A DNA stretch of 64,000 nt from assembly GCA_964658305.1 (NCBI GenBank), contig OZ210884.1, positions 5,952,001-6,016,000 on the forward strand, read 5' to 3'. The notes below the pieces were generated by a model. It saw only the letters and a list, made by a program, of their open reading frames with translations. It was not told where the DNA came from and did no database searches. The stretch is from Leptogorgia sarmentosa (Eukaryota). Each line of letters begins with the position of its first letter. The first letter of the stretch is position 1. Of this stretch, positions 10,375 to 60,440 are shown piece by piece. Position numbers and translations under genes: made by a program.

Positions 10375-10560
10375 CTAACGTTTCGTTGCTACATCACTAT
10401 CATTACAGCTCTGATGATGTTGCGATGTAGCAACGAAACGTTAGTAATATATTTTATATAAAACTGAATGGTTTTAATATGTATGCATTATAAATCGCTT
10501 GCTGGGCACTAATATTCATATTTAGATTAAGATTCCCGCCTGGTATTTCAATTCTGAAAC
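10375..10560 (+). mobile_element. Probable Penelope-like element terminus with inverted repeat and hammerhead-like core
   Basis: 21-bp perfect inverted arms at 10375-10395 and 10424-10444; CTGATGA-t-gttgc..gcaac-GAAAC-gtt. Absent from the paralogous modules at ~11475 and ~12057; second copy at 47871-47940. Confidence 0.4.
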
Positions 10561-20400: not shown

Positions 20401-20569
20401 CTGTTTAACAGTTTTTTTGTCAAATTAGGACTGTCATTCCACTACACTTGAGGCACAACTAGGTTTAAATATAGGGTTCAAAACAAATTATCAGACTTTA
20501 TGTGTTATCTTTGGTTGTCATATTTTTCGAAGAATATCGCGCGCGACGCACTTTTTGCTCTGCTCACTC

Positions 20570-20990
20570 TACAATGCGCTATGGTCCGACGGTCTCCATA
20601 GTCGGCCTACGTTAGTGTCCTACAATTCGCGATGGTACGAAATTTACCACAGTTGGGTAACGTCAGTGTTCCACAGTTCGCTATGGTACGAATTTCACCA
20701 TAGTCGGATAACGCCAATGTCCGACAGTTCACTACGGACGAAATTTCACCGTAATTGGATAACGCTAATGTTCTACAGTTCGCTATGGTACGAAATTTAC
20801 CGTAGTTGGATAACGCGAATGCTCTACTGTTCACTATGGTACGAAATTTACCGTAGTTGGATAACGCTAATGTTCTACAGTTCGCTATGGTACGAAATTT
20901 ACCGTAGTTGGATCAGCGCTAAGGTGCCTCAGTTCGCTATGGTACGAAACTTACTGTGATTTACCATAATTGGGCAACGTTAATAACGAT
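20570..20990. repeat. 51-bp minisatellite, ~8 units, each with an internal hairpin
   Basis: Consensus tacagttcgctatggtacgaaatttaccgtagttggataacgctaatgttc; units start near 20570, 20621, 20672, 20723, 20774, 20825, 20876, 20929. Confidence 0.85.
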
Positions 20991-21389
20991 TCATAACTCT
21001 TTATTGTATGAACGTTACCGTAGTTGAATCACGTCTGTAGCTCATAGTGTGTTTTCTGCGTAATACACCGGTGGCTTGCAATTCGTTTTGACAAAATTAC
21101 AGTCTGTCGCAACCCATGAATGCTGTGGGAGCATGCTGTGCAAGTATCAGCTCCACGGGCCCACGGCGGTATAATGGGAGAAGCGCAAAATGACATTCGA
21201 CTCGCCAAAGTCTCCGGATTGTTGCTTGGAGGGGTGATGTATTGTCATCACCCTTGGTGGTCAGCTTAAGATACCACTGGCACGGATCTTAACCTGAGTC
21301 CAAGTAACAACATTTGCCCCAGGCCACCCCTCAGTCATCTGGGCTAACACCTCACCATCCAAACGGGTAAGTATGGTGAACGAAGGTGT

Positions 21390-22783
21390 TAATGCGAAGT
21401 GTTGTGTTGTTAATTTTTAGGGACGCATGTTCTTCGTCTTTGTCACCTGTCATACCTGTCTTCACCATGTCAATTCCATGAGTTGAGGAGTCGCTATCAT
21501 AATCGATGCCGTGAACCGATTTCTTTGCTGGTTTCGATTGTGGTCGATATAGTTTGGCATAGTGTCCTAGTTTTCGACAGTTGTTGCACTTTTTCCCGTA
21601 TGCAGGGCAGGATTTTGGTTGTGAACTCGACCACAATTACCGCTTTGTTTCGATGGGTGCGAGATTGTCCTCTGTAATTGTTTCTGCGCTGGTCTTTTGC
21701 CAATGCATCGACATTGGCGGAATTCTGATCTAGAGACTTCATTTGCTCGTGAGATACTTCAGATGCGCGACATATACCCACAGTTTTTAGGGTTAACTCA
21801 GATTCCCGAAGTAGGCGTTCTTTGATGTGATGGTTTCGAATTCCACAAACTATTCGGTCGCGAATCAGCCCGTCGTGAAGTGTTTGAAATTCACATGTTG
21901 CCGCAAGAGTCCGTAATACAGTTACAAACTGGTCGATGTTCTCGTTTTCTTCTTGATTCCGTATGTTGAATTTGTGCCGTTCGTACGTGATGTTCTTTCT
22001 CAGGTTACAGTGGGTTTTAAACGCTGACTTTAGCTCGTTTGTTGTTCTATTCCACGTTGTCCCACCATCTTCGTCTGTCTCGCTTTCTGGCGTTGCGAAC
22101 GTCAGTGTCTTGTAAACTTCTCGGCCTTTCTCTCCAATGCATAGAAGAAAGTATGAACATCTTTCCTCTTCAGAGCGTCCTTTCAGCTCTGTTTTCTCAA
22201 AGAGCGTCCAGTGTTTCTCAAACTTGCGAAAGTTCTCACTGACGTTCCCGTCTAATTTCAAAGGTTTAGGCGCTGCCCATTGAAGGTTTCCTGTAATCCT
22301 GTTGCCATATTTGCTGCTTGTATGGTATCCCACTCCTGACACCATGTAATACTTCAGTGTGCTTATAGAAATTTATTGTGACTCAATCAAATACATATGT
22401 CTGACTATGTCGAGGTGCTCTAGCGAGTGCCCCGGGTTCCTATTACAATTGCATGTGCTAGTGATTATGTTAAGCTGTCAATCAATTTACTTGAAGTGTG
22501 TACATACAGGGGGTGGACAAAAAAAAGTGGCCCCCAGAACAATTTGGTTCATAAGCGGCAAGCTCCACAACCTTGCAGATTTAAAGAGGATTTAAATTTT
22601 GAGATTTAAATTTGCTAAGGTTGAAAGATTTATAAATTTGCTTAGGTCGTACTCAAACCAAACGGAGTTCTGCATTCCCGATTACTTGAGAGAGATGTTT
22701 TTCAGTAAAAACCGAATTGTTCTGGGGGCCACTTTTTTTTTGTCCTCCCCCTGTATATAGCTACTATATGAGCATATATTACA
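21390..22783 (-). mobile_element. Truncated Ty3/Gypsy LTR retrotransposon: 5' LTR, PBS and degraded gag
   Basis: LTR 22345-22783 bounded by tgtaata/tattaca; PBS TGGTGTCAGGAGTGGGAT at 22344-22327. Gag motifs ERHKFNIRNQ, IRDRIVCG and knuckle CPAYGKKCNNCRKLGHY are split by a frameshift. Confidence 0.8.
22507..22753. mobile_element. Tc1/mariner-type MITE inserted in the LTR
   Basis: TIRs cagggggtggacaaaa..gtggcccccagaacaatt / aattgttctgggggccac..ttgtcctccccctg; TA target duplication at 22505-22506 and 22754-22755. Confidence 0.8.
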
Positions 22784-25125: not shown

Positions 25126-27595
25126 TCCATGGGGGCAATTACTCCCCTCCCGCAGATATATAGTTGAAAAAAGCACCGTTTGCAGTGGCGTAGCTAGGCT
25201 AGAACTTCAGAGGAGAGTGTTTATATCTAGATTCATTCACTTACATTCTTAGTTATATACATCCCCCTTTATAGCAATTACCACTATCGTTGCGAAAATA
25301 TAGGAGGGGGTTTTCTTGCAAATTGTGGAAAAATTAACGTATGTTTATGTAGCTAATGTCTTTATATTATATGTTATTGACTATTCCCGATATTGAGGGA
25401 TAACCGCCACACGATCCAATATAATTTATTACACAAAGTATAAAACCTCCGGACACTACAGCAGAAGTGTTATTCAGTCTATAGGTTTTTGGATCGCTGG
25501 ATTCATTATTTCTTTAAAGAAAACTGGAAAAGGTATGTTGATCTGCTCCTATTTTTCATCACAACCGTATTAAATTGCCTACTATGTCTTGCACGCACAC
25601 CACTGAGAGTATTAATAATTAATTGCCTGAAATTAGTTCGAATAATTGAATTGTTCAACAGACGAAATGAATTAGTTAAAAGTTTGTTTTACTATAATAT
25701 ATAATTCTTGAAAGAACCAGGCAATCCAGTAATTTCGGGATAATAATCTGAGATCTTTGACGGAGCCTAATTTTAAACACTCGGCTCTTTCAGGCCAGTG
25801 TATTTAGATTACAAGCTTAAGATTTTTATGAAGGGTGGAGCCTAAATCGAGGATAATGCACCTCGTTGAACTCTAAGGTGAGCTTAATTAGAATCAGACA
25901 TACTGTAAAATGTTGCACAAAATAGTTTTATAATACTAGCCAGAAGACACAATCTATTGGAGCACACGTTAGTACAATCGACATCATGTTCACGCCCTAT
26001 TCAAATGTAACCGCATTATAAGCAAGGTAATTTAGGAACCTTACCCACAGCAGTTTAGGCCAATCCATTACTTCATTGATTAATTAATTTTGCTTACACA
26101 ATGGCAATTAAAGGAGGCAATTGTTTATTCCTCTTTCTAATAAATTGCATTCTAAATTTACAGGTGACGAAGAAAATGGCAAAATTTGAGAATAATAGTG
26201 ATGGATTGCAAAACAGGTCAGTCTGATCATTGAATAATAAGTTTTGCTTGACGCCAGTACTAGTGTTCCAACAAATCCGTCCTGGCCCCTGGCGTGGAGG
26301 GGGGGGGGAGATATTCTTAGAGATATTACTCTCTTTTTAGTCTCTTGCTTATTACAGGAAATCGGCCGGGTTAAGGTGTTAGTTTAGGGCTTCAAAATTC
26401 CTAGCAATGCCGCCCCTTGGGGGAACGGAGAGAGGGAAAATTTTGTGTGACACCGAGAAACATTAAGAGTTTTACTGAAGAAAGATTATGGTCTATATAA
26501 ATGCACGTTACAAGAATATGATAATTCAAAACTGAAACTTTAAGAATGTTGACTGATTTTTACTTGAAGGTTTATTTCACTTCTGAAATAATTGCATATG
26601 ACAATTGATAATTCCCATTCGGCCAAGGATAATTCTCAATCACTTCAAAGACATAAAAATTTATGTTCTCATTATTATAACCTTAAATTAAATACACCCA
26701 TCGTACCCCGCGGTTTAACTTTTTAGCTGCTCCAACCTTCTGGGGCCAAGGGCCTATGTTGCTTTGTGTACCAGATGTAGTGATATGCGGTTCCTGTTCC
26801 CAATAAACTACCCTTGTCTAGATAATAATGTAAATAAAAGTGAATTCCATAAGATATTCTTTAAATCTACACAAATGTTACAATTCTAGCTTTTGGCGCA
26901 GAAATACATACTTGAAATCTTTAATACTGCATACGATCATCGTTTTTTTAGCATATAAAAAGTCCTGCTTATAAGATTACTGAAATGAATATACTGAAAA
27001 CATAATTTTAAATAAACAGTTAAAATTTCATCGTTATAGCTTTACATTGCAGTTCTTGGTCAATTTCGTGCCGATCAGCCTGGTATCACCATGGACGTAA
27101 CGACCAACTGAGACCACGTAACAATTTAAGGTTAATTAAGACGCAACCAGGACTAAAATGAAGGAAAATCCCCACAAGAACATGTCTCCCGAAAAGTAGA
27201 CTAATTTTGCAAATTTTTAACTATAAATATCTAATACACCGTTCCAGCAAGTAATGAGGGCAAAACCAAAGAAAAGAGGAATAAAAGACCCCAAAAAGGC
27301 CATTTCCGATGATCTGAAACCTCAAATTCTAAAACAATTTTCAGTCGCCGCCAACCATGGTTGCGTCTCGTAGGCTCCAACTTCACGGAACTACTATTAC
27401 GTTGCTATGTCCATGAAGACTAGAATACCTGGCACACCAAGTAATAAATAGCTAGACAAAGGGGGGAATTTGTGCATTCTCCATCTTTAAATTTGCTAAA
27501 AATGTTTTGAACCATTAAATATTCGCGCGTTGAAAAGAAGCTTTGAAGTTTATTTGGTAAACCAAATTACCAAATAAAACGTAATTGTGAAACGT

Positions 27596-27666
27596 ATGAT
27601 GCATATAAAACGTAATTGTATAACGAAACGTACTGTGGAATATGTAAAATTAGTGACATGTTCCAG
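27596..27666 (+). CDS. Copy B exon 1 (MMHIKRNCITKRTVEYVKLVTCS)
   Basis: ATG at 27596, cag|GTaagg donor, phase 2 in frame with exon 2. Confidence 0.7.
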
Positions 27667-30600
27667 GTAAGGTTGAATCGCAACAAGTCTGGGCGAGAAA
27701 TGTTTTGTAGGAATAGCATTTGAACAAAATCAAAATGGTCTACGAACATAATTTATTTAAGGGATTCACAAAGGACGTTTTAACGTTCCTAACAGCTGTA
27801 CATTACAACATCTTTTTTTTATTTTTTACTTGTTAGCAACAAACCAAATGTCTACAATGAAGTCGAATACTTATACCGGCAGCAAACACAATCTTGGTTT
27901 GAAAATGGGTGTCTTCGGCACTGGGCATGGTGTCAAAAACTCTTTATTGTATTCCTTGAAAAGCTTTTTGAAAAAACCGCCCTCTTTATTTCGCGGCGGC
28001 CATTTCATATCATATTCACATGCCTGTTTGTTGCCATTGTCTTTACCTGTGGATTTGTGAAGTTAGAGCCCGAAGAAAATGTAAAATACTTGTTCCTGCC
28101 AGAAAACAGCGAAGCATCGCAGGATATACGCAAGGCACGAGATTTGGGATTTGAGCTTGAAGTGCGACAAGAGGAGATTATTTTTTTACCAAAACAAAAC
28201 AAGTCTGTTCTTTCGGAGGAATGTTTGTCCGAAATGATTGATTTACACAAAATAATCACAAAAATAAAGCTTTACGAGAAATATTGTTATAAACCACATC
28301 CAACTATCCCTTGTGCCTCCGTAAATTTGTTAGAAATTTTCGGTTACCATAGAAATAACTTGAACAATATTCAACAACACATCAAGCAATTGCTTGACAA
28401 CGATGTTTTTCTAATGACGAATGGAAGACGACTTCAAGATAATTACAATGCAATATTTGGAAAAGCTGCTTCGAATGGTAAACTTGATTCAGCAGATGCC
28501 CTGAGAATTGTTTACTATATGAGAGAATACAGAAGAGAGGACGAAAACAGAAAGCATGTTTTGGACTGGGAGATGGAATATTTGAACGCTGTTTCATCTT
28601 TTGCACAAAACACAACTTGTGTAAACATTTTTTATGCAGCAGAACGAAGCCTGGATGATTCAGTGGCAGAAAGTACTGGTTCTGATATCAAGTTCTTTTC
28701 GCTGACTTTCACAATCATGGGAATTTTTAGTGGAATAATAAACGGTAGATGTGCAGATTCTCGCTATGGACATCAACTTTTGGGATTTACTGCTTTGTTA
28801 TCTATCTATTTGGGTGTCACCTCGGCGCTTGGCTTCTTGTTGTTCTTCGATGTTCCTTTTGTCAGTATGGTTGGGGTTTTGCCATTTTTAGTCGTTAGTA
28901 TTGGCATTGATGACGTGTTTATTATTCTACATGAACTGAACGAATTAGTCCGTCAAAATCTTCCAGCTAGGTATATGCTTAGCGGTACAATGGCTAGAAG
29001 TGGTCCAACTATTACCATGACAACCCTCACTGACCTGGTAGCATTTGCTGTTAGCTGTCGTTCTATCTTTCCCGCGATTCGTTATTTTTGCACATACGCG
29101 GCGCTGACGATTTGGACAGCATTTCTTATGCTGATGACATTTTTTGTTGGATGCATGTGGTTTGATATCAAACGAATTAACGCGCGTCGTCGAGATATGG
29201 CACCTTGTGTAATGGTGGGACCGCCTAGGAGCTGCTGTATTGGTTTCAAAACGCATGGATTTGACAACGTGATGAGATCATGGGGCAAGATAATAACATC
29301 TCCAAAAGCAAAAATTATCGTCTGTCTGTGTTCTTTGCTGCTCTTGTCTGCTGGTATTTATGGCGCTCTCAATATTGATGAAAGTTTTAGCAGACAGTTA
29401 CTAACAACTGAAAAATCACACTACCGGGAATACCTGAACGTTTTTGAAGAAAAATTTCATCTCACTATTCCAGTTGATGTTATCTTCCCCGGACAGGCGA
29501 GCCAATCCAGTCAAGACATTCAAAAAATGTATTCAGAAGTTCAAAATATCGCTGAGCGTAATGCGTATTTTCTTTCCGAAAGTATTTCTTGGATGTCAGA
29601 ATACAGGTCATGGGCAAACAAACAGAATATTGACATAAATGACACCATTACTTTCTACAATACCTTGCCACATTTTATTTCTTTGCCACAATATTTAAGG
29701 TTTGCCGAAGATTTAAAATTTTCCAAAAACAAAACGCATTTGACAGCTTCAAGAATGTTGTTGTTCTCCAAGAGTAACCCTGCTTCCAGTTTTCAAAGAG
29801 ATATGATGCTCAGCATAAGACAGGATCTCTCTCGTGCGGCAGATGTCAATGCATTTGCCATTACCCTACCTTTCATCTACTTTGAACAATTTGCTAATGT
29901 CCTTAATGAAACTGCGAGGAATTTGGTCGTTGCAGGAATCTCAATTCTTTTGATATCATCCCTGTTCCTGAATCATTTTATCATAATAATTTGTCTTTTG
30001 TGGGGATTTTTAGCTCTTATTCTTGAGCTTCTTGGACTGATGTACATATGGAATGTCTCTCTGAACTCAATTTCTATGATAAATCTTGTTATGGCTCTAG
30101 GATTTTCCGTGGATTACAACGCACATGTGGCCTATCATTTTGTTTCGTCGAAGGAGACCTCTGCAGAGAATCGTGTTATTGACTCAATTGGCAAAATTGG
30201 GGGCAGTGTTTTTCTCGGAGGTCTGAGTACTTTCCTTGGAATGATGCCTACAGGATTTGCTTCCTCTACTGTCTTTGTAACATTCTTCAAGATGTTTGTT
30301 GGCATTGTGGTTCTTGGTCTGCTGCATGGCTTAGTTATATTGCCCGTGTACCTGACACTTCTGGGAAAGCTGTTCGACTTTCGTGAAATGGACATCGATT
30401 CGTTCATAATGAAATGGTTCAAACATGTAGGGAAACGTAAATTCTACGAAATTACTGACACAACCTCTTCCAAGTATGTTGTAAAAGCTAAAAATCCCAT
30501 TGCTGCTGCTATAGTTGGCATTGGTTGCCGCTTTCCTGGAGGGACAAACAGTAAAGATGAATTCTGGAATATGCCGGTTGAAGGACGTTGTGGTATTGGA

Positions 30601-33600
30601 TCTTTTCCAAAAAATAGACCTGACTCAGAAGAATTCATGGATTCTTTTAATCCTGGACGGAATACTCCTGGAAAACACTACGTGCTTACTGGAGCATTTC
30701 TTGAAAAAATTACGGGATTTGATGCTCAGTTCTTTGGAATAACTCCCGCCGAGTGCCGTCAATTAGATCCACAACAACGCTTACTTCTTCAAGTTGTTTA
30801 CGAAGCAATTGAAGATGCAGGAATGCGCCTTGAAGATTTGCAACAATGCCGAACCGGCGTTTATGTTGGATTAATGAACTTAGAATATGGTTCGCTTGTT
30901 TTAGAGTCATCCAACATTCGAACCATTGATCAATTTTCGCCCACAGGTTGTGCCATGTCCGTTATTGCCAATCGCATTTCTTTCGCATTCAATCTTACTG
31001 GGCCCAGTTTAACACTGGATACAGCCTGTTCGTCATCCTTGGTGGCCTTCGACGTTGCCTTTGGACACCTACAAACTGGTGAATGTGACGTAGCAATTGT
31101 ATGTGCACCAAATATTCTTCTTACGGGTAGAAAATTTCACCTGGCATGCTGCAGGGCAGGACTGTTGGCCCAAGACGGTCGTTGCAAGAGTTTTGATATA
31201 ACAGGAGATGGATATGGTCGAGGCGAAGGTGTTGCTGCTGTATTGATTAAACCAACCCAAACGGCTCTGGATGACCGAGATGATATTTATGCGGAGGTTT
31301 TAGCTTGTGGTGTGAATAACGATGGACAAACAGCAATTCCATTAACAGCTCCTAGCGAAGTTACACAAGCCGTTTTGTTCGAAAGAGTTCTTCGAGAATC
31401 AGGTCTGTCCAAGGATGACATACAGTACGTTGAGGCTCATGGCACTGGTACAGCTATTGGTGACGTCGTCGAAATGGGATCATTGGCTGCAATTTACGGG
31501 CATAGTAGCAGCCGCATACTTCGCTTAGGATCCGTGAAATCTAATATAAACCACACCGAATCAACTGCAGGTTTAGCTGGCTTGATAAAAACGTGTCTTA
31601 TGATAAAACATGCTCAATATGTTCCGACAATCAACGTTCATGAAGTTAAGCCTCAGCTCAGAATGACTGAGAGAAGAATGATGGTTCAAACTAGTAATGA
31701 GCCGTGGAATTGCAATTCTGGGACTGGCAGAGCAGCTGCCGTCTCATCCTACGGCTTTGGTGGTTCTAATGCTCACCTTATCGTCCGAGAGGTTACCAGG
31801 AAACCTGTTTCAGTATTTCCTACTAGACCAGTATCTAACAGAGTTATGACGTTGTCTGCTACTTCAAAAGATGCTTTAAAAGTCCTGGCCATGAAAGTAT
31901 CGCAGTCTTTCAGAACGAAACCAGATGATGACGAACTTCTCAAGGACAACATTTGTTATTCCCTGAATGAGAGATACACTCAACATCAAAATCGTTTGGC
32001 TGTCAGTTTTTCTTCTTTTCAAGACGCAGCAAATGCTTTGGAAAAGTTCACAAATGAGGATGAAGGGTTTGAAGAAGTGGTAGCTACTGGTCACGTAACT
32101 GCATCCCGTAATAAAGTCGCCTTTCTGTATGGTGGTCAAGGAGCTCAATGGTTTGGAATGGCAAAGGAATTGTTAGTTCATGAGCCAAAGTTCAAGGAAA
32201 GTATTGAAAAGATTGATGACCTCCTGAAACGGTACAAATCTTCGTGGTCCTTACTAAATGAGCTTCAAAAGCCGGAAGAAACGTCCCGCCTAAACGAAAA
32301 TCCCATCGGGCAGACGGCGTTGTTTGCTGTACATTTTGCCTTAACTGAATTACTGGAATCGTGGGGTGTCACACCATCAGCTGTTGTTGGCCATAGTCTT
32401 GGGGAAATATCGGCTGCTTGGGCTTCCGGAGCTTTGCGTTTACATAAAGCTTTGCAATTGGTTTTATTTCGATCGCATCTTCACGAGAAGTGTTCACCGA
32501 CAGGTTGTATGGCTGCCATTGGTCTTTCAAAAGCTGATGCTGAAAAAATGTTGAAGGAACTTCAGGTAGAGAATGAAGTTGATGTTGCGGTGATGAATAG
32601 TCCTGGAAACATCGTCTTATCTGGTTCTAAAGCGTCAATGGAAATCGTTGAAAATCACGTGAAAACTGCGCGAAGTGATGTTTTCTGGAAAAAACTTTCC
32701 ACAATACGAGCCTATCATAGCCAAGAAATGGAAGAAATCAAAGAATCTTTCGACAAAACCACCAGTGAATTCCGCGTACGTCAAACATCAAGTAATATAC
32801 CATTTTACTCAACAGTAACAGGCACCCAGTTGTCTGGTCAGCTTCTCTCCTTGGACCATTGGTGGCAAAATATCCGACAACCTGTTCTGTTTGAGCATGC
32901 CATAAAAACCATGTTTGCTGATGGCTACCAATTTTTCATTGAAATCAACGCTGCCCCTCAACTTTCATACCATGTTCGCCAGACGTGGTTCCGCAGTCAA
33001 ACAGCAAAGTCCTTGCGTACGAATGAGGTTTTTGTGATTCAAACTATTCCGAAACGCACAGCAAGTCATCAGCACTTGTCTTTTCTTCAAAACTGTGTTG
33101 CTCATCTCTATACCCATGGTGTGCCCATATCCTGGAACAAAGTGCAAGGTTTAGGTTCAAAAACATTCTTTCCACGTCCAACATACCCATGGCAAGAAAC
33201 AGAGTTTTGGTACCGTGATGAACGTCCTTTGGAATTTGTTACGTTTTTGAATAAACCCAAAGCAGAAGGAAACGATCGGGTTGTCTCCTTCCATCCCCTT
33301 CTTGGAAATGCAGTACCAACAGAAACGTTTGCTGGCATACGTGCGTGGGAGTCTGAAATGAATTTACATGATCTGCCATACTTGAACGATCACAAATTCT
33401 CTGGTTTTCCTGATCCTGTGATTCCAGCGGCCGTTTATGTGGAAATGGCATTGGCAATGTCATTAGATCTGTCTCCTAATTCAGCGCCAGATATACACAA
33501 CATTGCCTTCAAGAATCTGCTGACTGTATCCAGTATCGAGTCACATATAATTAGAACACGTCTTTTACCAGAAGAATATCCAAGTAAAGAAAATATGTTT

Positions 33601-36600
33601 CAAATTACTATCGTTCAAGACTTTGGTGACGAAGTGATTCTTTCTGATGGTGGCATATATGTAGATGCTTGTTATGGCTATGCGAACCAAGGTATGACAA
33701 GGTTTTAAGCCCCCAGTTACACGATACCGGATTACTATCGGAGCGGCTGTTCCAATGTGGATTTAGCTCTTTTGTGATAATATCGAGAGAGAAGACTGGA
33801 AAGTGTCCTAAATTGATGTCACTCCGATGCAAATCCGCGGCATGGTGTAACTGGGAACTAATAAATCAGATGTTGGACAGTCGTCCAGCGAATTGAAACT
33901 CCTGTTTCGTCGACAACTTATTTAGTAAAAAACGTATCCCCTGATTAAGCAGATATGAAAAGCCGTTGGAGTTCCACATAAAGAATAACCTCCATAATAA
34001 AATGTTCACTGTTTTAAAGTTAAATTAAATGGATACTTTTATATTTAATTTTTCTTTGACTTTTTTTCTAGAAATTTCCCGACAAGGAGATCCTAAGAAT
34101 TTTGACATCTTAAAATCAGCAATGATTCAAAGGTCAAAAGAAGATATAGAGAAAAAACGCGAAGAGTTGAGTTTTGCATTTGGTCCCCAATTTGATTTGA
34201 TAACCGATCCATGGTCAAACGACACAGAAGCACTATCTTGCATAGTCCCGACTGAAGAGATTTTTAAAGAAGCGTCATTTTATGTTATCCACCCGACATT
34301 GATTGATGCGTGTTTCCAAACAATTCTTCTGCTCAGTAATCAAGCTGGTAAATTTGTTCCCCAGAAAGTCACTCGTGTCACCATGCTGCAAAAGCTCTCG
34401 TGTATCGAACAGTTTTATGTCCACACCAAATTGGTGGAATCTGAGAAAACACCAACCTACAACATCACCCTGATGGATCGGTATTCGAGACCTTTATTAT
34501 TCATTGAAAAGCTTATCTTTGCCGAAATCTCAGCAAATAAAAGCAAAATTAGTTTTGAAAACACGTCTTTCACATTCGGGTGGGAGGCAGCAACAATTGA
34601 AACTCCAAAATCGAGTGCACGTGAAGGTAATGTTTGGTTGATTCTCAGGGATCAAAACAAATATGCTGAACAGTTTTCTCACTGTATCCCTGCTGAGAGT
34701 GTTCTTTTTGTTGATATACAAGATACTTCAAACAAAACACGTGAAACATTTTCTGAAGCACTGGATGCAGCCCTGGCAAAAATGGAAAACGAAGAAAAGT
34801 TACTGGTGATGAATTTCTGGCCAGTAGATTGCAGTACCTTTGATGTTGGAACCCAAAACTTCGATGCAACTCATGCCCTTGCATTTGAAAGCTGTCTTTT
34901 AATTTCGCAAGAAATTGCGAAAAGAGAGATAGAAAATATCCAACTAGTCTTTGTCACCTCAGGAGTTGTTACCATTCCTCAGCACAACCGCTATCCAAGC
35001 ATGGATAATTTAGATGCTTTTCCATGGTCTGCTTCTGTGCTTGGATTCAGGAGAACTTTCTCGGAGGAAATCACAGCAATTAACGCTTCTGTGGTGGATT
35101 TACCTAACAATCCCGGCGACGATGATTTTCTATCCCTGGCAGAAGACGTACGAAAAGGGACAATGGAAGAAGAAATTGTCTATAGAGATGGCTTACGATA
35201 TGCCAATCGATTCAGGAAGTTGAGTTTGGGTGAGAGAAAAATTTCGAAAGATGAATCTCCTGTAACGACTGATGGTAAACAAAAGCCTTTCAAGGTGACA
35301 AGCATGTCGGGGAGATGGTTTCTTCAAAAAACGTCTGAAGAACGAATGAATGGAAAAACAAAAATTGACATCCATTTCGCTTGTCCAGTCCTTCAAAAGC
35401 CGTGGTGTGACCTGAAAACGAATGATCGCGTAGCATTTGCAGGAAGTTTATGTGATGGTCAGATCAAAGCACGAAATGGCTTCGTACTCGGCGTTTGTAA
35501 AATTGATGACTTGGGCAGTTGCGTTGACGCAGAAAAATGCTGTTTAACAAAGATAGAAGACAACATCAATGCTCGGCAGGCGGTATCTCTCGGTTTCCCA
35601 CTGGTAATGTCCTATTATATTCTCACCAATCTCGTTAACGATGCACCAGGAAAGAATGTCCTCATCTATCACGAGAACGAGGAGATATGCTGCATTTTTG
35701 CATGCGTTGCGCTGTGCTTTGATGTTAAAATCGTGATTCTCGCCAAGGATCGAAAAAGTAAGGAACGAATAACGAATACATACGATTTAGCGGTTGTAAC
35801 TGCAGATGAAATAGCAAGAGCAGAATGGAATTCGAGCGTGGTGGAATTCGACGCTGTTTGCCTCCTAAGTAAAAACAGCGCATATCTCTACCGTCAAATA
35901 ATGAATCATCTTAAACATGGCGCCAACGTAATCACTCTATGTCGAGATGAAAATATCAAGTTTATCCCGTTTGTTTATGGCAAAAATGTCCAATGTTTTA
36001 TGACCAATTTGCAAAATATCACCGAGAGCTCTAAAAACTTTGAAAAATTGTTGGGCTGCTGTTATACGCTTTTGAGATCAAAAAGCCTTCTGGAAAAACT
36101 TCTAAATATTCCTCAGAGAGTATCCAACATATACGACGTCATGAGCAATGAAATAAGAGAAAAAGAAATCGGTTTGTCCATAGTTTCATTCAAACCTGAA
36201 AATACTCCCGAAAAAGTGGCTTTCTACAGTTTACCACTGGATGCAAACGGTTTGAAAGATGATCGCACGTATCTTGTCATTGGGGGAGTTCGTGGTTTTG
36301 GTTTTGAAGTTGCAAAATGGATGGTTGAAAATGGCGCCAAAACAGTCGTATGTACAGCCCGATCACCGCCCAGCGAGGAAAAGGAAGCCGAGATTCAGCG
36401 CTTAGAGCAAGCGACTGGATCCCAGATTCTACTGAGACAAGCAGATGTTACATCGTGGAAAGACATGAATGTAATAAAGGATGAACTTGAGAGCTTGCCT
36501 GCTGTGGCTGGAATGGTTTTCACCGCTATGGTTCTGGCAGATCAGTTGCTCATCAACGCCGACTTAGAAACATGTAAAAAAGTTGTCGAGACAAAAGTAA

Positions 36601-39600
36601 AAGGTGAATTTTCCAACATATTTAATTATTTATAGCTCCTTTACATGATCAATTTAAATAAACACGGAAAGTCTCTAAATGAATTCCTCACGGTATAAGT
36701 TTTATCAACAATTTAGAATCAAACATTAGAAGAAATGTGGTAGGCTCTGACGGAAAACTGCTCCTCCACGTTTGCCATCGTGATGAAAAAAAGTCTATTG
36801 TCAAGCCGAATGTTTAAATTCGAATGATTTTTCAAGCTGACAAAGCAATTAAGCAACCGTATCGAATACACTCCAGTTGCAACAAAACATTATGTACTAC
36901 TTCACTACACTACTACAGGAGAAGTTCATATTATTGGTTCTTTCAATTTTTCCGTCGCTTTATAAAATCTTGTACTTTGTGACATGAAATTTATCGTTCA
37001 ATGCGGCAAATATTCTCGAGGACCAACACCAACCTACAACATTTATACTATATAAAGAAGTGAAAATCTGTCCCTGCGTTTTATACTACCAGTTTTATAC
37101 TACAGCTAATGCGCTTCATAACAAATTTCTTCATAACGATTTGATTGCCATTAAAGGGAGTGTTGTCCTTCATCAACTCAGTGTATCAATGGATTTGGAT
37201 TTCTTCATTATGTTTTCTTCAATTTCTGGTGTTCTTGGCAATGCTGGTCAAGTCGCTTACTCTGCAGCCAACTCATTCATGGACCAACTTTGCGAATATC
37301 GTCTACACAAACTTGGCCTGCCCGGACTTTCTGTCAACTGGGGACCAATTAGTGGTACAGGAGTGCTTGAAAGAAATACAGATATCACGCCAATACTTGA
37401 AGCAAGTGGATTCCATGTATTACACTACACAACAGGTATTTAGACCCATTCAACGGAACAAATGCTTCTTCATCGGGAGAGGGGTGTAAAAAACTGGGAA
37501 AAATATTACAGTTATCCATTGCATATTGAGATTACTGCATATATCTTTTCGATATGCCGTCATGAAAGAGATAGTGAAGTCTGTTTCTGTGCTTACTATA
37601 ACGCATAATTTAAATTCGTTCATCTCAATTTTGGACTGTATCGCTTATAATGATGGCCGAGGTAATGGATGCATGGGATTGCACTTCTCCTAATACATGC
37701 ACTACTATTAAGCAATTTAAAAATAATGCATTTTGGTTTTAGCAATTGAATTCCTCCAACGTGTTCTCCTCGAGCATTCGAACGAATCTCAAGTTTCCTT
37801 AGCTCCAATAAATTGGCGAGTTTATCTCAAGAAACATACTTCTCCAAGACTGCAGCTGATTCGTGAAGAGACACTGTTAGCCACTGATGAGAGCAAAGTC
37901 ATGACTCTGAAGGAGCTAGCCCTACTACCACTTGAACTCAGAGTGAAGTATGTTGAGGATTTTATCAAACGTTTGCTTTCCTCGTGGTCAGGAGCTGATC
38001 CCGCTGAGCTCGACTTAAACGTTGGGCTGCACAAATATGGAATTGACTCAATTGCCGCAACGAATATGAAACTTCAAATTGAGAATAATATCGGTGCTGT
38101 TTTTGAAGTAAGCATTTCTTTTGTCAAATCGACCTATGAATGCAGTTCGGTAGTATAATATTGCTACTACTAACCTGCACTTTGCTAACGTTCTTAACAT
38201 CATTTACAGACATACTATTTTATTCAACCAAAGACGAGTGGTCTGATTATTATTAACGACATCCTTGAACAAATCGAAAACATTGATGATGATGATGATG
38301 ACGACGGAAAATTTAATGTTATGCAATCGAGTAGCCTATTGTCTGAAAAACAAAATAAAAGTGATTCGTTACATGGGAAAAGCATCGAGCTAGATAATCA
38401 AGCGAATGAAGCCATTGAAGAAGTGGAGATGGTTGAAGAGAACGACGTTCCCGAATCGATCAAGGAAAAAGTCATTCCACTCTATGCTCCAGATGACGCA
38501 GTTGTAAAAGTGTTTATGGTTCATGGCAGCCAGAAGTCAGCGCTGGTATTGGGAACATTCGCACTTGGTTTTCAACAACAGGTAAGCAGATATTTCTTTG
38601 ACTTTAGCATAAACACTCTGCGATATAACAAAGTGCAATGCGTGTCAGTGTTTATACTTTATAGTGACACTTTTGATGCATGAGTCTAATTTTTCCGACT
38701 AGTCTAAAAGTATTGCAAACGAAATTAAAGTTAAGTTAAGTTAAAAATTGTCGAAATTCCACATTTTTCGAACTTTTCCAGGATTCATGAAGCTTTGTTT
38801 TATATTTATTTAAGAGTATACTGCAAGCAGACTGTTCTGAACAGTGATGGATTTTTATTCAGTGTCATATTTTGGAATTAAATTTCGCAGTTCGAAATGT
38901 AGACAAATCTTCTGTGTAGCTATATTACAGATTTGAGTTCCCCTTGAGATTTTTTTAGTGTGAACAGTTAAACTTATCATCCATTAGCAAAAGACACTTG
39001 GAGTCGTTACAGACTAATATTCTTATAATGTGATTGCGTTTGCTATCAACATGCTGAATTTTGTTTCAGACTAAGGTTGCATTGTATGGCATTGGGGTGG
39101 ATGATACCTTTTTGGTGACAAGTCATTATGGTACAGTTTTGACACTCGCTCAAAGATATGTAAATCTGATACAAAAAATCCAGCCACGTGGTCCATATTA
39201 CCTCGGTAAGAGAAAAAATTGTAATATCTAGGCAACTTTGTCACCACTCTTAAAACCACCATTCAAAGTGCATATTTTATAATGCAAGAAGAGCATGTCT
39301 TGCTTATGCCTATATTCCATATGAATTTTTCCACAACAAAACAATATGTGGAAGACTGTTTGTTGTTCGCATAAAAAATACTCAGTCATTACAACATTGG
39401 GCATGAGTGTTATTTTTTCTAGCGGGTTATTCCTTCGGTGGTATGGTAGCGTACGAAATGGCGAGTGAGCTAACACGGAATAACGAATCCGTCGCAATGG
39501 TCTTCATGGTGGATACATATCCCTGGTTTCCCAAAGCATTGACTAATTGCAGTGAATACATTACAAAATGCGTAGAACTAAACTTGAAGATACTGGAAAT

Positions 39601-41660
39601 GCATGTGGTAAATAATATTACACCTAGTGTGAAATATTTAACGATCGACGTGTTAACATAGGATATTTGAATTTACTTTGAAAAACCAACTATTATAATA
39701 ATTTTGATATATGTTATAGCGCGCGTTCTTTGGATTGAAATAACGATGCTAATAAACAATTTGTCATGTTCTTTTTCTTTGCAGACAAGGCGATATATCG
39801 GGAGAATGGCTTTTGTTGCGCTTGGTACGACACGAAATGAGTTGGATAAGATGTACGATGAGTTGGGAGACAGCGAAAAGGTTATAAGTGCTTTGCAGGG
39901 TCAAGCTGCCGAAGCAAACATCGATTTTCCTTTGCAAGAAGGTGTGGACAGTGTTTTGTATGAGCTTAGATCCGCTGCTAAGGCTTACACTGAATGGCAA
40001 CCTTCTACGGTATGTTAAATTACTTCAAGTACCTTGCTCATCCATATTCATCTTCAAAGCAAATGCCTAATACTCTAAAAAAGTTAAAAATTGCTCGATA
40101 TTCCGAAGAGTATATATTATGAAGACTTTTATACAGGTCAATTTGTTATTATTTTTGCACAGGTATGTTATGAGGGCACAATAACATACATATGCTGTGA
40201 TGAAACCAATTCCTTTCCACTGTGGAGCTTACAAATGTGGAAATCATTGGTTGAAAGAATGGACTTTTACTACGTTCCGGGAAAACATTTGCAGACGCGT
40301 GACGAAACTCGTGGCAAGATTAGTGGATCTATAATGATGACAACAGCAGCAATGAAGTATCAATCAGCATTTTCCACATTTAACTTCCAGACTGTGAGAT
40401 CCAGGTCACAAGAACGCTTGGTAGAGTCCCTAAAGCAAGGCTTACACATAAGGATGTTGTCAAGTCCAAGTAAGAGAAAATTAAGTAAGAGGCGAAGAAG
40501 AAAATATTGGAAAATTTTCCGTATTTACTCGTAATTACCGTTTGTGCGCCGCCTTCCAATAAGCGCCTAATGTGAGAGCGAAGAACTTAAAAGACGCCGC
40601 CTACGAATGAGCACCACACTCGTTATCTGCACCATGCAGTGTTTATTCGAAAACACTGTCATAAATATTTAAAAAAACTGATCATACAAAATAACTATAT
40701 GACATTTTAATCCTAAATGAACGTGGAAAATTTATTTTCTTGCACTACAATCCTTTTCAGATAAAATAAGTGCATTTCAAAGCCCTGGTAACGGTTCTTT
40801 TTTTTGTTTATATGTAAAGTTTTGCCGCTGTCCCTGAATAAGCGCCGCATCTTAGACACTGAAAATTTAAAGAGCGCCGCCGCGCTCGAACGAGCAAATG
40901 CGGTATATAGTTTTGATACCACAAAAAATTACCTCGTCTTCATCGAATGCCTATCCACTCATATTCTCCATCTTCTACATGTAGGTTCCAACACAACGAT
41001 GAAAGGCATTCTGTGGTTGGATTCCGAAGAAACCGTGTTTTATTTCAAATATGAATCACTTGGATGTCCCAAGATGCGAAAGATTTTTCTCAAAGGTATT
41101 TCTTCGTTCCCGTCAAGTTATATACTTAATATAAATTTTAAGTTAGTTTATACACAAACACAATCTCAAGCACATTTAAATGACTGCCCCAAACACTAAC
41201 ATTTGAAGCACAAGGATATCGTGTCTGCATGGGTACGGGTGACGCCACACCGCCCACACGCTCCGTTTTGTTGACTTGCAAGGAAGAAATATAAACACGT
41301 CTTCGTGTTTTCTTTATTAGTTAACATGATTTTGGCAAGCGGAACTTGCGCTGGCGATTGCTGTTAAAATAAATATTGAAAAACGTTTTTTTGAATTTCT
41401 TATAGATATTAAAAAAAACCTATACATAGATTTGTATTGAATAATACCAATTTTACCTTTAAGATCTGACCAACGTTGTACCTGGTAGACATGTTGATAA
41501 AATCAGGAAATATCATGAAGGCAAATCTTACACTGATTTCCTCGTGTGTATGTTGAGCAACAAAGGCAAGCTTTACACGTTCAGATGTGAAGATTGGGAA
41601 CAACTTAAGAAACTGATCGATGCCTTGGAAGCTCTCTTTGGAATTCCATTTATCCAGTGA
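27596..41660 (+). CDS. Copy B complete gene model: Patched/NPC1-like transporter-KS-AT-DH-psiER-KR-ACP-TE-PH-like, 3,544 aa, 12 exons
   Basis: Exons 27596-27666, 27837-33691, 34072-36603, 37157-37435, 37743-38107, 38210-38581, 39070-39205, 39423-39607, 39785-40009, 40163-40469, 40985-41095, 41464-41660. All introns are GT-AG with compatible phases; total 10,635 nt ending in TGA. Splicing rebuilds motifs across junctions, e.g. QPRGPYYL|AGYSFGG and TKVK|GSVVLHQLS. Confidence 0.85.
27837..33691 (+). CDS. Copy B exon 2: Patched-like transporter, KS, AT and first half of DH
   Basis: Acceptor AG at 27835-27836, donor GT at 33692. GIDD 28903-28914, GFSVDY 30100-30117, KS Cys codon 31027, GHSLG, HPLLG, LNDHKFSGFPDPVIP. 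Confidence 0.92.
33710..33856. mobile_element. Short MITE in copy B intron 2
   Basis: Inverted termini cccagttacac / gtgtaactggg. Confidence 0.45.
34072..36603 (+). CDS. Copy B exon 3: second half of DH, structural KR, degenerate ER, KR N-terminus
   Basis: HPTLIDACFQ, LGFRRTFSEE, TYLVIGGVRGFG, MVLADQL, TKVK; AG at 34070-34071, GT at 36604. Confidence 0.9.
37157..37435 (+). CDS. Copy B exon 4: KR catalytic region
   Basis: DFFIMFSSISGVLGNAGQVAYSAAN (Ser/Tyr/Asn), SVNWGPI. Confidence 0.9.
37743..38107 (+). CDS. Copy B exon 5: KR end and ACP
   Basis: LHKYGIDSIAA phosphopantetheine Ser motif (codon 38048); gaa|GTaagc donor. Confidence 0.88.
38210..38581 (+). CDS. Copy B exon 6: ACP end, acidic linker (D7), TE start
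   Basis: In frame with ORF 38321; VFMVHG; cag|GTaagc donor. Confidence 0.8.
39070..39205 (+). CDS. Copy B exon 7: thioesterase (missing from ORF track)
   Basis: ALYGIG...LAQRYVNLIQKIQPRGPYYL; tttcAG acceptor, GTaag donor. Confidence 0.88.
39423..39607 (+). CDS. Copy B exon 8: TE nucleophile
   Basis: AGYSFGGMVAYEMA (GxSxG) and VFMVDT (candidate Asp). Confidence 0.9.
39785..40009 (+). CDS. Copy B exon 9: TE lid region
   Basis: Polypyrimidine-gcAG acceptor, acg|GTatgt donor, phase 0/0. Confidence 0.75.
40163..40469 (+). CDS. Copy B exon 10: TE His and start of PH-like domain
   Basis: YEGTITYI...WKSLV...VPGKH; a|GTaaga donor. Confidence 0.8.
40537..40905. mobile_element. Degenerate TA-flanked MITE in copy B intron 10
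   Basis: Termini taccgtttg / caaatgcggta, internal repeated (a)agcgccg motifs. Confidence 0.35.
40985..41095 (+). CDS. Copy B exon 11: PH-like domain
   Basis: KGILWLDSEETVFYFKY...RKIFLK; phase 1/1. Confidence 0.68.
41464..41660 (+). CDS. Copy B exon 12 (terminal; missing from ORF track): PH-like C-terminus
   Basis: ttttacctttaAG acceptor; DLTNVVPGRHVDKIRKY...KLYTFRCEDWEQLKKLIDALEALFGIPFIQ*. Confidence 0.68.
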
Positions 41661-42233
41661 GATGTGACTTACCATATAATACCATATATATATTACTTTA
41701 TTGACTTTTTATAGTTATGAACCATTATAAAAATTGGGATAGAATTGGATTAGTAGTATTATCATTGGGGAAAATAGTGTTAGCTACTGTATGCATGGGA
41801 TGAATACGATAATATAATTTCTTGATTGTGGTGAAATAATTGGGCTGAGTAGTTCTTGTCACAAAATGCAATTTAGCATTTTAATTTCTCATTTATATTT
41901 GTGTTCAAATCGTTAGCTCTAAGTACTCATTTACTTCACGCAGGCTATGTGACGAGGCCTTAACATTCCAATCCCAAATTCATTTTTTCATCAAGAGATA
42001 AAAAGTTACTTGTTTTCCTCGTGAACAATTGTTTGACGGTTAGGATTAGGGTCAGGTCAGATTTAAAGAAATGTTCTAGCTGCCTCTAATCCTCAAACAC
42101 GAGGTGATTACAAGCTCGTGTTCACTGAACCACAAATCGGAGGGTTGAGAAATTAACCAGGAACAGGCCATCGGGAGCAATTTACGATTAGAGGGCTGAA
42201 AATCCGTATTAGTGATTACGTTTGCGGAAGGTT

Positions 42234-42523
42234 TGCAAATGCTTTGGAAACGTTCACAATCAGGATGAAGATCCTATGAGACGGCAGCTGCTCTGCCAGT
42301 CCCAGCATTGCAATTCCACGGCTCATTACAAGTTTGAACCATCATTCTTCTCTCAGTCATTGAACATATTGAGCATGTTTTATCATAAGAAACGTTTTTA
42401 TCAAACCAGCTAAACCTGCAGTTGATTCGGTGTGGTTTATATTAGATTTCACGGATCCTAAGCGAAGTATTCGGCTGCTACTATGCCCGGTATACATAGC
42501 GTTGAGGCTCATGGCACTGGTAC
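42234..42523. pseudogene. Scrambled patchwork of KS and KS-AT linker fragments in both orientations
   Basis: Pieces match B 32029-32066 (+), A 2931-3016 and A 3054-3181 (KS on -), and B ~31420-31452 (+). Confidence 0.85.
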
Positions 42524-47321: not shown

Positions 47322-50207
47322 AATACCGTTTATTTGACAAATCGGTTGACTGTCAATCGCTGGCTCAATGTGCAAAAACTGATCGAAGTTGAACGCTGGA
47401 GTGTGATGGATTTTGATTGCGTAATTGTAATTTGAGAAGAGTTTCAATCAATTGGAAAATAATTTCGAAACCTTGCTCCATTTTTTTTTCCCATGCCCCT
47501 TTTTACGTTTGTCGCGTGACTAATCAGACTACTCCTTAACTCCTAGATCCGCCCTTGGAGCAAGTCTTAGAAGTGATTTGTTTTAATTTATAACTTTAGC
47601 AGTAGTTCATCTTAAACAATTAATTGAATGTCCAACAACCTCATTATAACTTGAAAGTTTTAAGAAAAAAAATTTGCAATAAAAGCTCGTTGTTTATATG
47701 TCTCAAGACATGGCCTTTCATTGCGTCTTCTTTCTTGTTGATAAAGAATACAACGTTTCAGAATTGAAATACCAGGCGGGAATCTTAATCTAAATATGAA
47801 TATTAGTGCCCAGCAAGCGATTTATAATGCATACATATTAAAACCATTCAGTTTTATATAAAATATATTACTAACGTTTCGTTGCTACATCGCAACATCA
47901 TCAGAGCTGTAATGATAGTGATGTAGCAACGAAACGTTAGCAAAGCGGGTTTGGCTTTAGCGGCTAAAACTGAAAAGTGCAATAGCTACAATTCTGCAAT
48001 TTGGAATTTCTCGAAAGCTTGCAAGTTAGCAACCATATTCAAATATTTGTTTTGTTAAAATTCACCAAAACATAGACATTGTTACAAGAGCCGCTCAAAC
48101 CATTATCCATTCAAATTTTTCCATATCATGAGTCCTTTTTTAAAAACATTTCGCTGGGGGGAGGGGCAAAACAAAGTCTTAGAAGTGATTTGTTTTAATT
48201 TATAACTTTTTAGCAGTAGTTCATCTTAAACAATTAATTGAATGTCCAAATAATTTGAAAGTTTTAAGAAAGTTTTTTTGTAAATTGTGGAAAAATGAAC
48301 GTATGTGATTAATATGTAGCTATAATGGCTTTATATGCATTATATGCATGTTATTGATTATTCCCGATATTGAAGGATAACAGCCACACGATCCAATATA
48401 ACGGATTACACAAAGTATAAAAGGGCCGGACACTACAGCAGAAGTGCTATCCAGTCTGTAGGTTTTTGGATCGCTGGATTCATTCATTCTTTAAAGAAAA
48501 GGTATGTTGATCTGCTTCAATATTTCATCACAACCGTATTAAATTGCCTACAATGTCTTGCACGCACACGCCTAAGAATATATTAATTGCCTGAAATTAT
48601 TCCGAATATCTGAATTGTTCAAAATACAGACGAAATGAATTATTTAAAGTTTGTTTTATTATAATATTAATATCATTCTTTAATGGAACTGCTTGTGCGA
48701 AAGAACCTGGTAAAATTGTTTATATTTTCGTCAAGCATAAAAATAGGCTTTGCGGCAAACTTAATTGTCAAAGTTAATCAAATTGAATGTTTCACGTCCA
48801 CGAAGCCCTACCTTATCTAAAACGACGACCATATGACTGCCTTCTTCCCCACTTTTTTACCATTTCTTGTTCGGGTGATCGACTAATCTGAGATCTTTGA
48901 CGGAGCCTAATTTTGAACACTTGGCTCTTTCAGGCCAGTGTATTTAGATTACAAGCTTGAGATTTTTATGAAGGGCGAAGACTAAATCGACGATAATGCA
49001 CCTCGTTGAACTCTAAGGTGAGCTTAATTAGAATCAGACATACTGTAAATTGTTGCACAAAATAGTAATATAATGCGAGCCAGAAGACACAATTGTTTAT
49101 TGCTTTTTCTAATAGATTATAATTGCATTCTAAATTTACAGGTGACGAAGCAAATGGCAAAATTTCAGAATAATAGTGATGGATCCCAAAACAGGTCAGT
49201 TTGGTTATCGAACATTTTAATTCGTTTTGCCTGACTCCAGTGTTCTAACAATTCCGTCCGGGGGGGATTGTCGGGGGGGATTGTCCTAACGATATTACTC
49301 TCTTTTCAATATCTTGCTTATAACGGGAAATCGCCTGGGTTAAGGTGTTAGTTTAGGGCATCAAAATTACTACGAATGCCGCCCCTTGGGGGAACGGAGA
49401 GAGGGAAAATTTTGTGTGACACCGAGAAACATTGAAAATTTTACTGAAGAAAGATTACGGTCTATATAAATGCACGTTACAAGAACATGATAATTCAAAA
49501 CTGAAACTTTAAGAATGTTGACTGACTTTTACTTGCAGGTTTATTTAACTTCTGAAATAATTGCATGTGACAATTGATAATTCCCATTCGGCCAAGGATA
49601 ATTCTCAATCACTTCAACGACATAAGAATTTATATTCTCATTATTATAACCTTTAATTAAGTACACCCATCGTACCCCGCGGTTTAATTTTTAGCTGCTC
49701 TAACCTTCTGGGGCCAAGGGCCTATGTTGCTTTGTGTACCAGATGTAGTAATATGCGGTTCCTGTTGCCAATAAACTACCCTTGTCTAGATAATAATGTA
49801 AATAAAAGTGAATTCCATAAGATAATTTTAAAATCAGCACAAATGTTACAATTCTATAGCTTTTGGCGCAGAGATACATTCTCGAAATCTTTAATACTGC
49901 ATACGATGATCATAAAAAAAAGTCTTATAAGATTACTCAAATGAATATACTGACAAATATAATTTTAAATAAACGTTAAAATTTCATCGTTATAGCTGTA
50001 CATTGCAGTTCTTGGTCAATTTCGTGCCGATCAGCCTGGTATCACCATGGACGTAGCGACCAACTGAGACCACGTAACAATTTAAGATTAATTAAGACGG
50101 AACCAAGACTAAAATGAAGGAAAATCCCCACAAGAATATGTCTCCAGGAAAGTAGACTAATTTTGCAAATTTTTAACTATAAATATGTATCTAATACACC
50201 CCTCCAG
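47322..50207 (+). repeat. Third copy of the upstream region (distal part), near-identical inverted copy of ~8145-10970
   Basis: For example, ORF-track peptides 48966..49160(-) and 9157..9351(+) are identical; the match resumes at 54803 after the transposon. Confidence 0.88.
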
Positions 50208-60437: not shown

Positions 60438-60440
60438 TTT

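Follow-up and report, generated by a model that had tools for sequence, protein, structure and literature searches.

An octocoral gene joining a PTCHD3-like transporter to an iterative polyketide synthase: a candidate synthesise-and-export enzyme

The budgerigar polyketide synthase (PKS) MuPKS forms polyenes in yeast (PMC7036892), and the medaka PKS is apical, its secreted lipophilic product nucleating otoliths (PMC4604110). The presence of PKSs in cnidarians has been linked to mineralisation, Acropora having them and Hydra and Nematostella being without (PMC4604110). Octocorals contain unmethylated polyenals with 6-14 double bonds (PMC13115693), and the genetic basis of red-coral colour has been called unresolved (PMC11662758). 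A patched domain is present in the majority of cnidarian PKSs (Yoshioka et al., bioRxiv 10.64898/2026.04.08.717340), and three Acropora digitifera genes (aug_v2a.12941/16843/16847) have been listed as 'other-KS-AT-DH-KR-ACP-TE', that is, an unnamed domain ahead of ketosynthase (KS), acyltransferase (AT), dehydratase (DH), ketoreductase (KR), acyl carrier protein (ACP) and thioesterase (TE) (Hojo et al. 2015, PMC4604110). Here we describe a gene in a 64,000-nucleotide stretch of Leptogorgia sarmentosa DNA (assembly GCA_964658305.1, contig OZ210884.1, positions 5,952,001 to 6,016,000, hereafter the window). It encodes an animal PKS of the iterative type that carries a built-in transporter and a predicted pleckstrin homology (PH) tail, an architecture that has been noticed before and left unexplained.

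The gene shares Patched and KS-AT-DH-KR-TE with the 'cnidarian PKS' clade of Yoshioka et al., by architecture rather than by tree, and is very probably a member of it. A first-pass annotation of the sequence knew of no characterised example; the architecture itself is not new, as it appears in one sentence of the 2026 preprint, and Hojo et al. list an 'other' domain at the same place. In the available parts of both papers the domain is neither interpreted nor tested, and the dead enoylreductase (ER), the cation triad and the PH tail are not noted. No functional study of a Patched-PKS fusion was found in the literature searched, from which subscription journals were mostly missing, and the same search found no characterised PKS or fatty acid synthase (FAS) with a built-in resistance-nodulation-division (RND) transporter. 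The word 'patched' had no match in the available text of Lin et al. 2024 (PMC10764717), including 11 of its 18 supplementary files. PTCHD3 or patched beside a vertebrate PKS is not mentioned in the available parts of the parrot papers PMC10962230 and PMC11739604, in the supplements searched or in five supplementary files of PMC4604110, and polyketides are not mentioned in the available part of PMC11959691.

Gene model, transcripts and conservation of the fusion

Rebuilt exon by exon, the gene has 12 exons, and all 11 introns are GT-AG. The first-pass model, which translates to 3,544 amino acids with a single terminal stop, had been presented as one frame. This holds for the part from the transporter to the start of the DH, which does lie in one exon; the whole frame is spliced, joining stop-to-stop frames at 27793-33708 (1,971 amino acids) and 34029-36635 (868 amino acids) with smaller downstream ones, and its corrected length is 3,534 amino acids. 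The corrected first coding exon heads the list.

26176-26216 (+), corrected first coding exon: ATG, 13 codons and two bases, phase 2 into exon 2
27596-27666 (+), exon 1 of the first-pass model
27837-33691 (+), exon 2: 5,855 nt in a single open frame, with the whole transporter, linker, KS, AT and N-terminal part of the DH
34072-36603 (+), exon 3
37157-37435 (+), exon 4
37743-38107 (+), exon 5
38210-38581 (+), exon 6
39070-39205 (+), exon 7
39423-39607 (+), exon 8
39785-40009 (+), exon 9
40163-40469 (+), exon 10
40985-41095 (+), exon 11
41464-41660 (+), exon 12

The corrected exon comes from one contig of one sequencing run (X5), which has 160 extra letters ahead of the exon-2 acceptor. The last 30 of these match 26185-26214, after which comes AG/GT, and the exon is in frame, giving the 3,534-residue protein. 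It is also conserved upstream of two further copies of the gene in the window (copies A and C, below). The first exon originally placed at 27596-27666 has a fitting phase and a depth of 0 in all three runs compared there (X3, X5 and X6); it is at best an alternative first exon, and the earlier placement was probably wrong. Residue numbers given here are those of the 3,544-residue model; subtracting 10 gives those of the corrected one.

Because the transporter, linker, KS, AT and DH start share an exon, no assumption about splicing is needed for the fusion. Pfam families on this exon were Sterol-sensing (E 7.8e-31), Patched (1.7e-26), KS (4e-74) and AT (5.8e-57), and those across the gene were Sterol-sensing, Patched, KS, AT, DH, KR, PP-binding and TE. 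The 3' part of the model is supported by an independent one, since the Dendronephthya gigantea RefSeq protein P0451 aligns to residues 915-3544 with 62% identity, exons 11 and 12 included. A gene-model artefact was ruled out, the junction lying inside a single exon and recurring in 30 homologues, as was a bacterial contaminant, given the spliceosomal introns, the flanking animal retroelements and the nesting among cnidarian sequences.

Six public runs contain the stretch. None is recorded as RNA, and RNA nature was judged from splice joints, contigs of X1, X3, X4 and X5 being compared over 27300-42000 and those of X3, X5 and X6 over 27550-30900. X1 and X4 contigs cover introns; X3 and X5 have a depth of 0-1.3 in intron bins. 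Three predicted introns are spliced in the RNA-like contigs: introns 6 and 10 in both X3 and X5 (GT..AG joints 38581/39070 and 40469/40985), and intron 2 in one X3 contig that joins exon 2 to exon 3. The fusion is bridged by an X6 contig of 622 nt (30157-30778, one difference), of which 216 nt fall on the side of transmembrane helices 11-12 (TM11-12) and 280 nt lie within the KS. The linker and KS start are also covered by X3 contigs, their TM-side match to this copy falling below the 31-letter rule, and X5 cover ends at 30384. The first pass had asked whether transcripts might be split or the locus silent; the spliced X3 and X5 contigs and the X6 bridge from TM11-12 into the KS answer this in part, and the want of a gene-length contig is weighed below.

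A search with the transporter half, restricted to proteins 1,524-4,350 amino acids long, gave 30 matches from 3,190 candidates. The co-occurrence of the two families, proposed as a check in the first pass, was found in every one (Patched/SSD, the sterol-sensing domain, with KS in 30/30), Sanderia malayensis included, and most are single-exon open reading frames (ORFs) with 56-81% identity. The protein from this jellyfish, P0030, is a full-length model of 3,629 residues whose domains follow in the same order; its transporter is 38% identical and its KS 50%. The junction is also found in Rhopilema esculentum models, and in Dendronephthya P0093 TM7-12 is fused to the KS (68% and 76% identity). 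Linker length, acidic triad and catalytic residues are conserved among the fused homologues, mean identity over 27 close homologues being 84% in TM blocks and 81% in the KS. Between copy A and this gene the ratio of nonsynonymous to synonymous change (dN/dS) is 0.26 in the transporter, 0.15 in the KS, 0.21 in linker-AT and 0.19 in the N-terminal DH. With one exon, spliced contigs and homologues in octocoral and jellyfish behind it, the fusion proposed in the first pass proves real and conserved. These comparisons indicate that it is kept from octocoral to jellyfish and that both halves are under purifying selection.

In a KS tree made up of cnidarian-type rows and seven bacterial ones only, both window copies fall in a clade with two Dendronephthya proteins (Shimodaira-Hasegawa support 90-99), apart from the Sanderia group. 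Two protein searches for taxonomic range were dominated by multi-module bacterial PKSs, with two named cnidarian rows among the best 120 of 2,160 matches, and two plus P0021 among the best 120 of 2,845; no named hexacoral fusion was among the matches listed in either. Two of the best 150 of 7,166 representatives carried a KS, and several near matches were single-exon ORFs ending near TM11. Public models cut the gene at different points (P0363/P0364 in Rhopilema, P0451/P0093 in Dendronephthya) and are labelled 'patched domain-containing protein 3-like' or 'uncharacterized'. Such truncated models may hide the fusion in databases.

Transporter, synthase and tail

The domains lie in the following order.

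27910-30372 (+), PTCHD3-like RND transporter: 12 TM helices, two luminal domains, SSD
28909-28914 (+), TM4 acidic pair D382/D383 (GIDD)
30112-30114 (+), TM10 acidic residue D783 (GFSVDY)
30373-30498 (+), linker of about 42 residues, beginning with a short helix and bridged by the X6 contig
30499-31797 (+), KS: C1088/H1225/H1263
32113-33042 (+), AT: GHSLG S1544 and selectivity motif RAYHS
33283-34550 (+), DH: H1876 and D2054, split by intron 2
34563-35225 (+), structural pseudo-KR region, collinear with mycocerosic acid synthase 5bp4
35226-36230 (+), pseudo-ER: a non-glycine stretch stands in place of the glycine-rich NADPH loop (about 35655-35705)
36258-37353 (+), KR: GGVRGFG and Y2854, exons 3-4
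37913-38227 (+), ACP: GIDS S3015, exons 5-6, PP-binding E 1e-5
38465-40372 (+), TE: S3207/D3234/H3382, exons 6-10, with intron 6 spliced in X3 and X5
40400-41657 (+), PH-fold domain of about 125 residues, exons 10-12, with intron 10 spliced in X3 and X5

An AlphaFold2 model from a 100-row alignment (mean predicted local distance difference test, pLDDT, 81.4) gave 12 membrane-type helices, the number expected from the first pass, and scored over 90 in most blocks of the RND part. With that number of helices ahead of it, the PKS is predicted to be on the cytosolic side, again as proposed earlier. Foldseek matched the model best to NPC1L1 (E 7.5e-39, TM-score 0.77 on the target), followed by NPC1, NCR1 and PTCH1 and then by Dispatched and MmpL; by sequence, the PDB search gave NPC1 at E 7e-52. 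SCAP and HMGCR were weak matches. The NPC1 N-terminal sterol-binding domain and 13th helix are absent, TM1 being reached at about residue 80 and the match beginning at NPC1 residue 555. The nearest named stand-alone relatives by sequence are cnidarian PTCHD3-like proteins, of Nematostella and Hydractinia. The phylogeny suggested in the first pass groups these with the fused domains in a clade of 16 rows (100/100), outside which lie the PTCHD3-like rows of molluscs and hemichordates. The original label 'Patched/NPC1-type' is therefore right as to the Patched/SSD hits and the NPC1-like fold, and misleading as to kinship and the missing N-terminal domain. The tree leaves the two fused groups unresolved, the fused state needing two changes; a single origin is not rejected (approximately unbiased test, p-AU 0.305), which does not show one origin.

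The acidic triad, two Asp in TM4 and one in TM10, is retained by 28 of the 31 fused proteins and by 69 of 79 other rows. In DISP1 three TM4/TM10 acidic residues coordinate Na+, and PTCHD3 keeps them (10.1101/2020.09.05.284026); we mapped them to D382/D383/D783 by motif position. Because this triad is kept, and given its Na+ role in DISP1, the RND domain seems to be an active secondary transporter and more than a membrane anchor. N-glycosylation sequons occur at 19.0 and 11.7 per 1,000 residues in the two luminal loops, at 0.4 in TM2-6 and at 3.5-8.2 in the PKS part. The linker is variable in sequence and fixed in length: identity is 3-11% in the three most distant rows, and the TM12 motif lies 53-58 residues from the KS start motif in all 11 fused proteins that have it (the TM12 pattern being missing in one fused row and two stand-alone rows). 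It is basic and modelled with low confidence.

The synthase is a single module with the KS Cys-His-His, AT Ser and ACP Ser in place, as in iterative type I PKSs, and the motifs named in the first pass (KS C/H/H, AT GHSLG, KR Y, ACP GIDS, TE GYSFG/D/H) are all present. On these residues it is a putative iterative polyketide synthase. The KS triad is found in 30 of 31 fused proteins, the remaining one having an alignment gap; among the 28 rows that cover the site the DH His is conserved in 27, and the Asp is present in each of the two named homologues checked. RAYHS in the AT we take to indicate malonyl-like selectivity. The PDB search of KS-AT placed bacterial PKSs (E 1e-165 to 1e-120) above FASN (1e-95) and EcPKS1 (2e-84), an order of scores alone.

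The PKS had also been called complete, which it is not. Alignment with mycocerosic acid synthase 5bp4, to which the middle of exon 3 is collinear, showed that the NADPH-binding loop of the ER is gone. The loop is altered too in Dendronephthya P0093 and P0451 and in Sanderia P0030. Pfam gave no ER family in this gene or in the homologues so scanned, no methyltransferase (MT) family among its matches in this gene, and no partner ER gene within the 64-kb window. The gene thus lacks the active ER, with its glycine-rich NADPH loop, of animal FAS and fully reducing synthases, and has the MuPKS-type combination of intact KR and DH, dead ER and no detected active MT. MuPKS itself is said to have a dead ER. 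A KR and DH acting without an ER produce conjugated double bonds. Loss of the ER loop changes the predicted product, as one double bond would remain per cycle.

The first pass overlooked the C-terminal domain. Pfam and PDB profile searches gave nothing for the tail, and we folded the orthologous P0451 tail from a five-row alignment; the best model had pLDDT 79.7, and three of the five were below 50. That model is a seven-strand sandwich closed by a C-terminal helix, the PH superfold. It matched the PLC-gamma1 N-terminal domain with Z 12.8 (root-mean-square deviation 3.1, 113 aligned residues) in a list filled by PH-type domains. Foldseek also returned PH folds, Atlas PH matches of 0.78-0.79 serving as a lead only. 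The last 125 or so residues are thus predicted to adopt a PH fold. Phosphoinositide-binding PH domains carry a basic motif; basic residues are sparse in the first loop of this gene's domain, and Sanderia has a larger number there.

Copies of the gene and their surroundings

The eukaryotic DNA of the window is rich in AT and contains retroelements. It holds two other copies of the gene, which itself is copy B.

964-6876 (-), copy A: an intact exon-2 paralogue, in head-to-head orientation to copy B
55638-56486 (+), copy C: broken remnant with a frameshift, most of the transporter deleted and a short KS piece
42277-42509 (-), short KS fragment with a frameshift, matching residues 1239-1327 at about 92% identity, directly downstream of the gene
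16516-19048 (+), reverse transcriptase frame, probably of a long interspersed nuclear element
21497-22372 (-), gag-like frame
51385-53569 (+), two overlapping frames (565 and 190 amino acids) with no Pfam match, probably a transposon-derived gene
56747-59884 (-), Pao/BEL element
60388-63998 (+), Gypsy-like gag-pol
20568-21033, tandem repeat with a period of about 100 bp
33700-33840, high-copy interspersed repeat in intron 2 that draws many unrelated contigs

As the first pass had noted, transporter, KS and AT are intact in copy A, where exon 2 is identical to that of copy B at 1,791 of 1,951 residues; its remaining exons would lie beyond the left end of the window. Synonymous divergence between the two is patchy, about 0.09 in the transporter and AT, 0.30 in the KS, 0.57 in the linker and 1.05 in the N-terminal DH, suggesting partial gene conversion. 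The KS loop following CAPNILL varies between copies A and B and among homologues, and could affect chain length. In copy C the deletion carries a short inverted insert, and the Pao/BEL element cuts the copy off; its upstream block (47369-50463) duplicates that of copy A (8138-10947) at 97%. A joint at 28225-30725, seen in X3, X5 and X6, was considered as a transporter-skipping transcript and ruled out, as it belongs to copy C. Contigs of all four runs X1, X3, X4 and X5 skip 170 bases of the acidic ACP-TE linker (38282-38453), pointing to a paralogue with a shorter linker.

A proposed mechanism and its alternatives

We give about an even chance to the proposal that this protein is a membrane-embedded iterative PKS whose product, an unmethylated polyene acid, leaves through the protein's own cation-driven RND domain. 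TM1 would act as a signal anchor, and after 12 helices the PKS would be cytosolic. The KS would dimerise like those of other type I synthases, pairing two transporter domains. The AT would load malonyl, and the KR and DH, with no ER to follow, would leave one double bond per cycle and so a conjugated chain. The TE would free the acid, and the PH tail may keep the release end close to the membrane. The RND domain would then use a cation gradient, probably of Na+, through D382/D383/D783 to shift the lipid from the inner leaflet outward or into a vesicle lumen. Likely destinations would be the calcifying space of sclerites, for a pigment or mineral-nucleating lipid, or a surface coat. Synthesise-and-export seems the best reading, both the export and its cation-driven mechanism being predictions from sequence. 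A bolder version, which we regard as possible and on the improbable side, has a single-chain Na+-driven make-and-export megaenzyme, ancestral to cnidarians, supplying the calcifying space with a mineral-nucleating lipid or with the unmethylated polyene pigments found in the sclerites of octocorals and the skeletons of precious corals.

Several points weigh against the proposal. Product, cargo and direction of transport are predictions. The TE would release an acid, and the reported octocoral pigments are aldehydes; the spacing within the DH His motif is unusual. The NPC1-type relatives are sterol movers and PTCHD3 gives no precedent for cargo, and the first triad residue is changed in 3 of the 31 homologues. 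The KS part of the AlphaFold2 model is poorly resolved, and no interface between transporter and KS is supported. The Dendronephthya RefSeq model P0451 starts at the KS, without the Patched domain, and P0093 starts at TM7; they may be soluble or shortened forms, or incomplete models. None of the contigs runs the full length of the gene, the RNA-like runs X3, X5 and X6 are all from one study and their kind is not recorded, and the bridging run X6 has no splice joint within 27550-30900. Sclerite pigment would not be the only role, because jellyfish and zoantharians have the gene; jellyfish statoliths are mineral. The gene also appears dispensable in Palythoa, because the cnidarian PKS was not found in three of five genomes (10.64898/2026.04.08.717340).

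The Patched domain might instead anchor the PKS and regulate it by binding sterol or lipid, much as in HMG-CoA reductase, or deliver a starter or acyl acceptor inward. This would fit the strength of the SSD match (E 7.8e-31) and the nearest structures, which are the sterol movers NPC1, NPC1L1, NCR1 and PTCH1, with weak matches to SCAP and HMGCR; the medaka PKS, moreover, secretes its product without a fused transporter, and P0451 is modelled lacking one. About five helices suffice for a sensor, however, and here all 12, with the luminal domains and the triad, are under selection, and we consider this role unlikely without dismissing it. Somewhat less likely still is that the enzyme does make and export a lipid, but a partly reduced or hydroxylated amphiphilic one, which would serve to nucleate mineral or to coat the surface. 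It could arise by skipped dehydration or with the help of an ER acting in trans, and the DH motif is atypical; the product of the medaka PKS nucleates otoliths, the compound not being identified there, and Acropora has such PKSs when Hydra and Nematostella do not. Set against this are the conservation of the DH His and Asp described above, the lack of a partner ER gene in the window by Pfam, and retention of the gene in non-calcifying Palythoa species.

That the halves act apart, through cleavage of the linker or an internal start at the KS, with fusion merely coupling their expression, we think improbable to a much greater degree. The variable, basic linker with its low model confidence would suit such a separation, as would the Met with which P0451 begins at the KS, the Rhopilema RefSeq model that ends shortly within the KS, and a transcribed copy C without most of its transporter. 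But the length of the linker is fixed, a Met is missing where the KS of this gene begins, copy C is frameshifted, and cytosolic cleavage has no support here.

If the synthesise-and-export proposal is true, a self-exporting synthase would offer a structural model for hand-over from ACP/TE to RND and a possible engineering chassis. The fusion would also mark animal polyketide lipids as what the orphan PTCHD3-type transporters export, possibly including the secreted otolith-nucleating product of the fish PKS. The gene makes testable the genetic basis of red-coral colour, the exit route of secreted animal PKS products that trigger mineralisation, and the cargo of PTCHD3-type transporters.

Among described synthases, MuPKS and medaka OlPKS are KS-AT-DH-KR-ACP with no ER by Pfam, as here, and sea urchin Pks2 has a TE, as this gene does (PMC4604110); the architectures listed for these three have no fused transporter or PH tail, unlike ours. 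The modifying region is collinear with that of the mycobacterial mycocerosic acid synthase. MmpL proteins with PKS or ACP partners are separate bacterial polypeptides, with 10-12% identity in the transporter, whereas here the two are fused. MmpL7/PpsE and MmpL8/Pks2 are such transporter-PKS pairings. In MmpL5-AcpM an RND protein is physically coupled to an acyl carrier protein (PMC12346298). NPC1, NPC1L1, NCR1, PTCH1 and DISP1 have the same fold as the transporter half, at about 20% identity, and none is fused to an enzyme. The stand-alone PTCHD3/PTR proteins of Nematostella (XP_001632695.3) and Hydractinia (XP_057293421.1) have 12 TM helices, two luminal domains and the full triad and lack the NPC1 N-terminal domain, as here, but at 869-909 residues they stop after a short tail, at the point from which fused forms run on into the KS.

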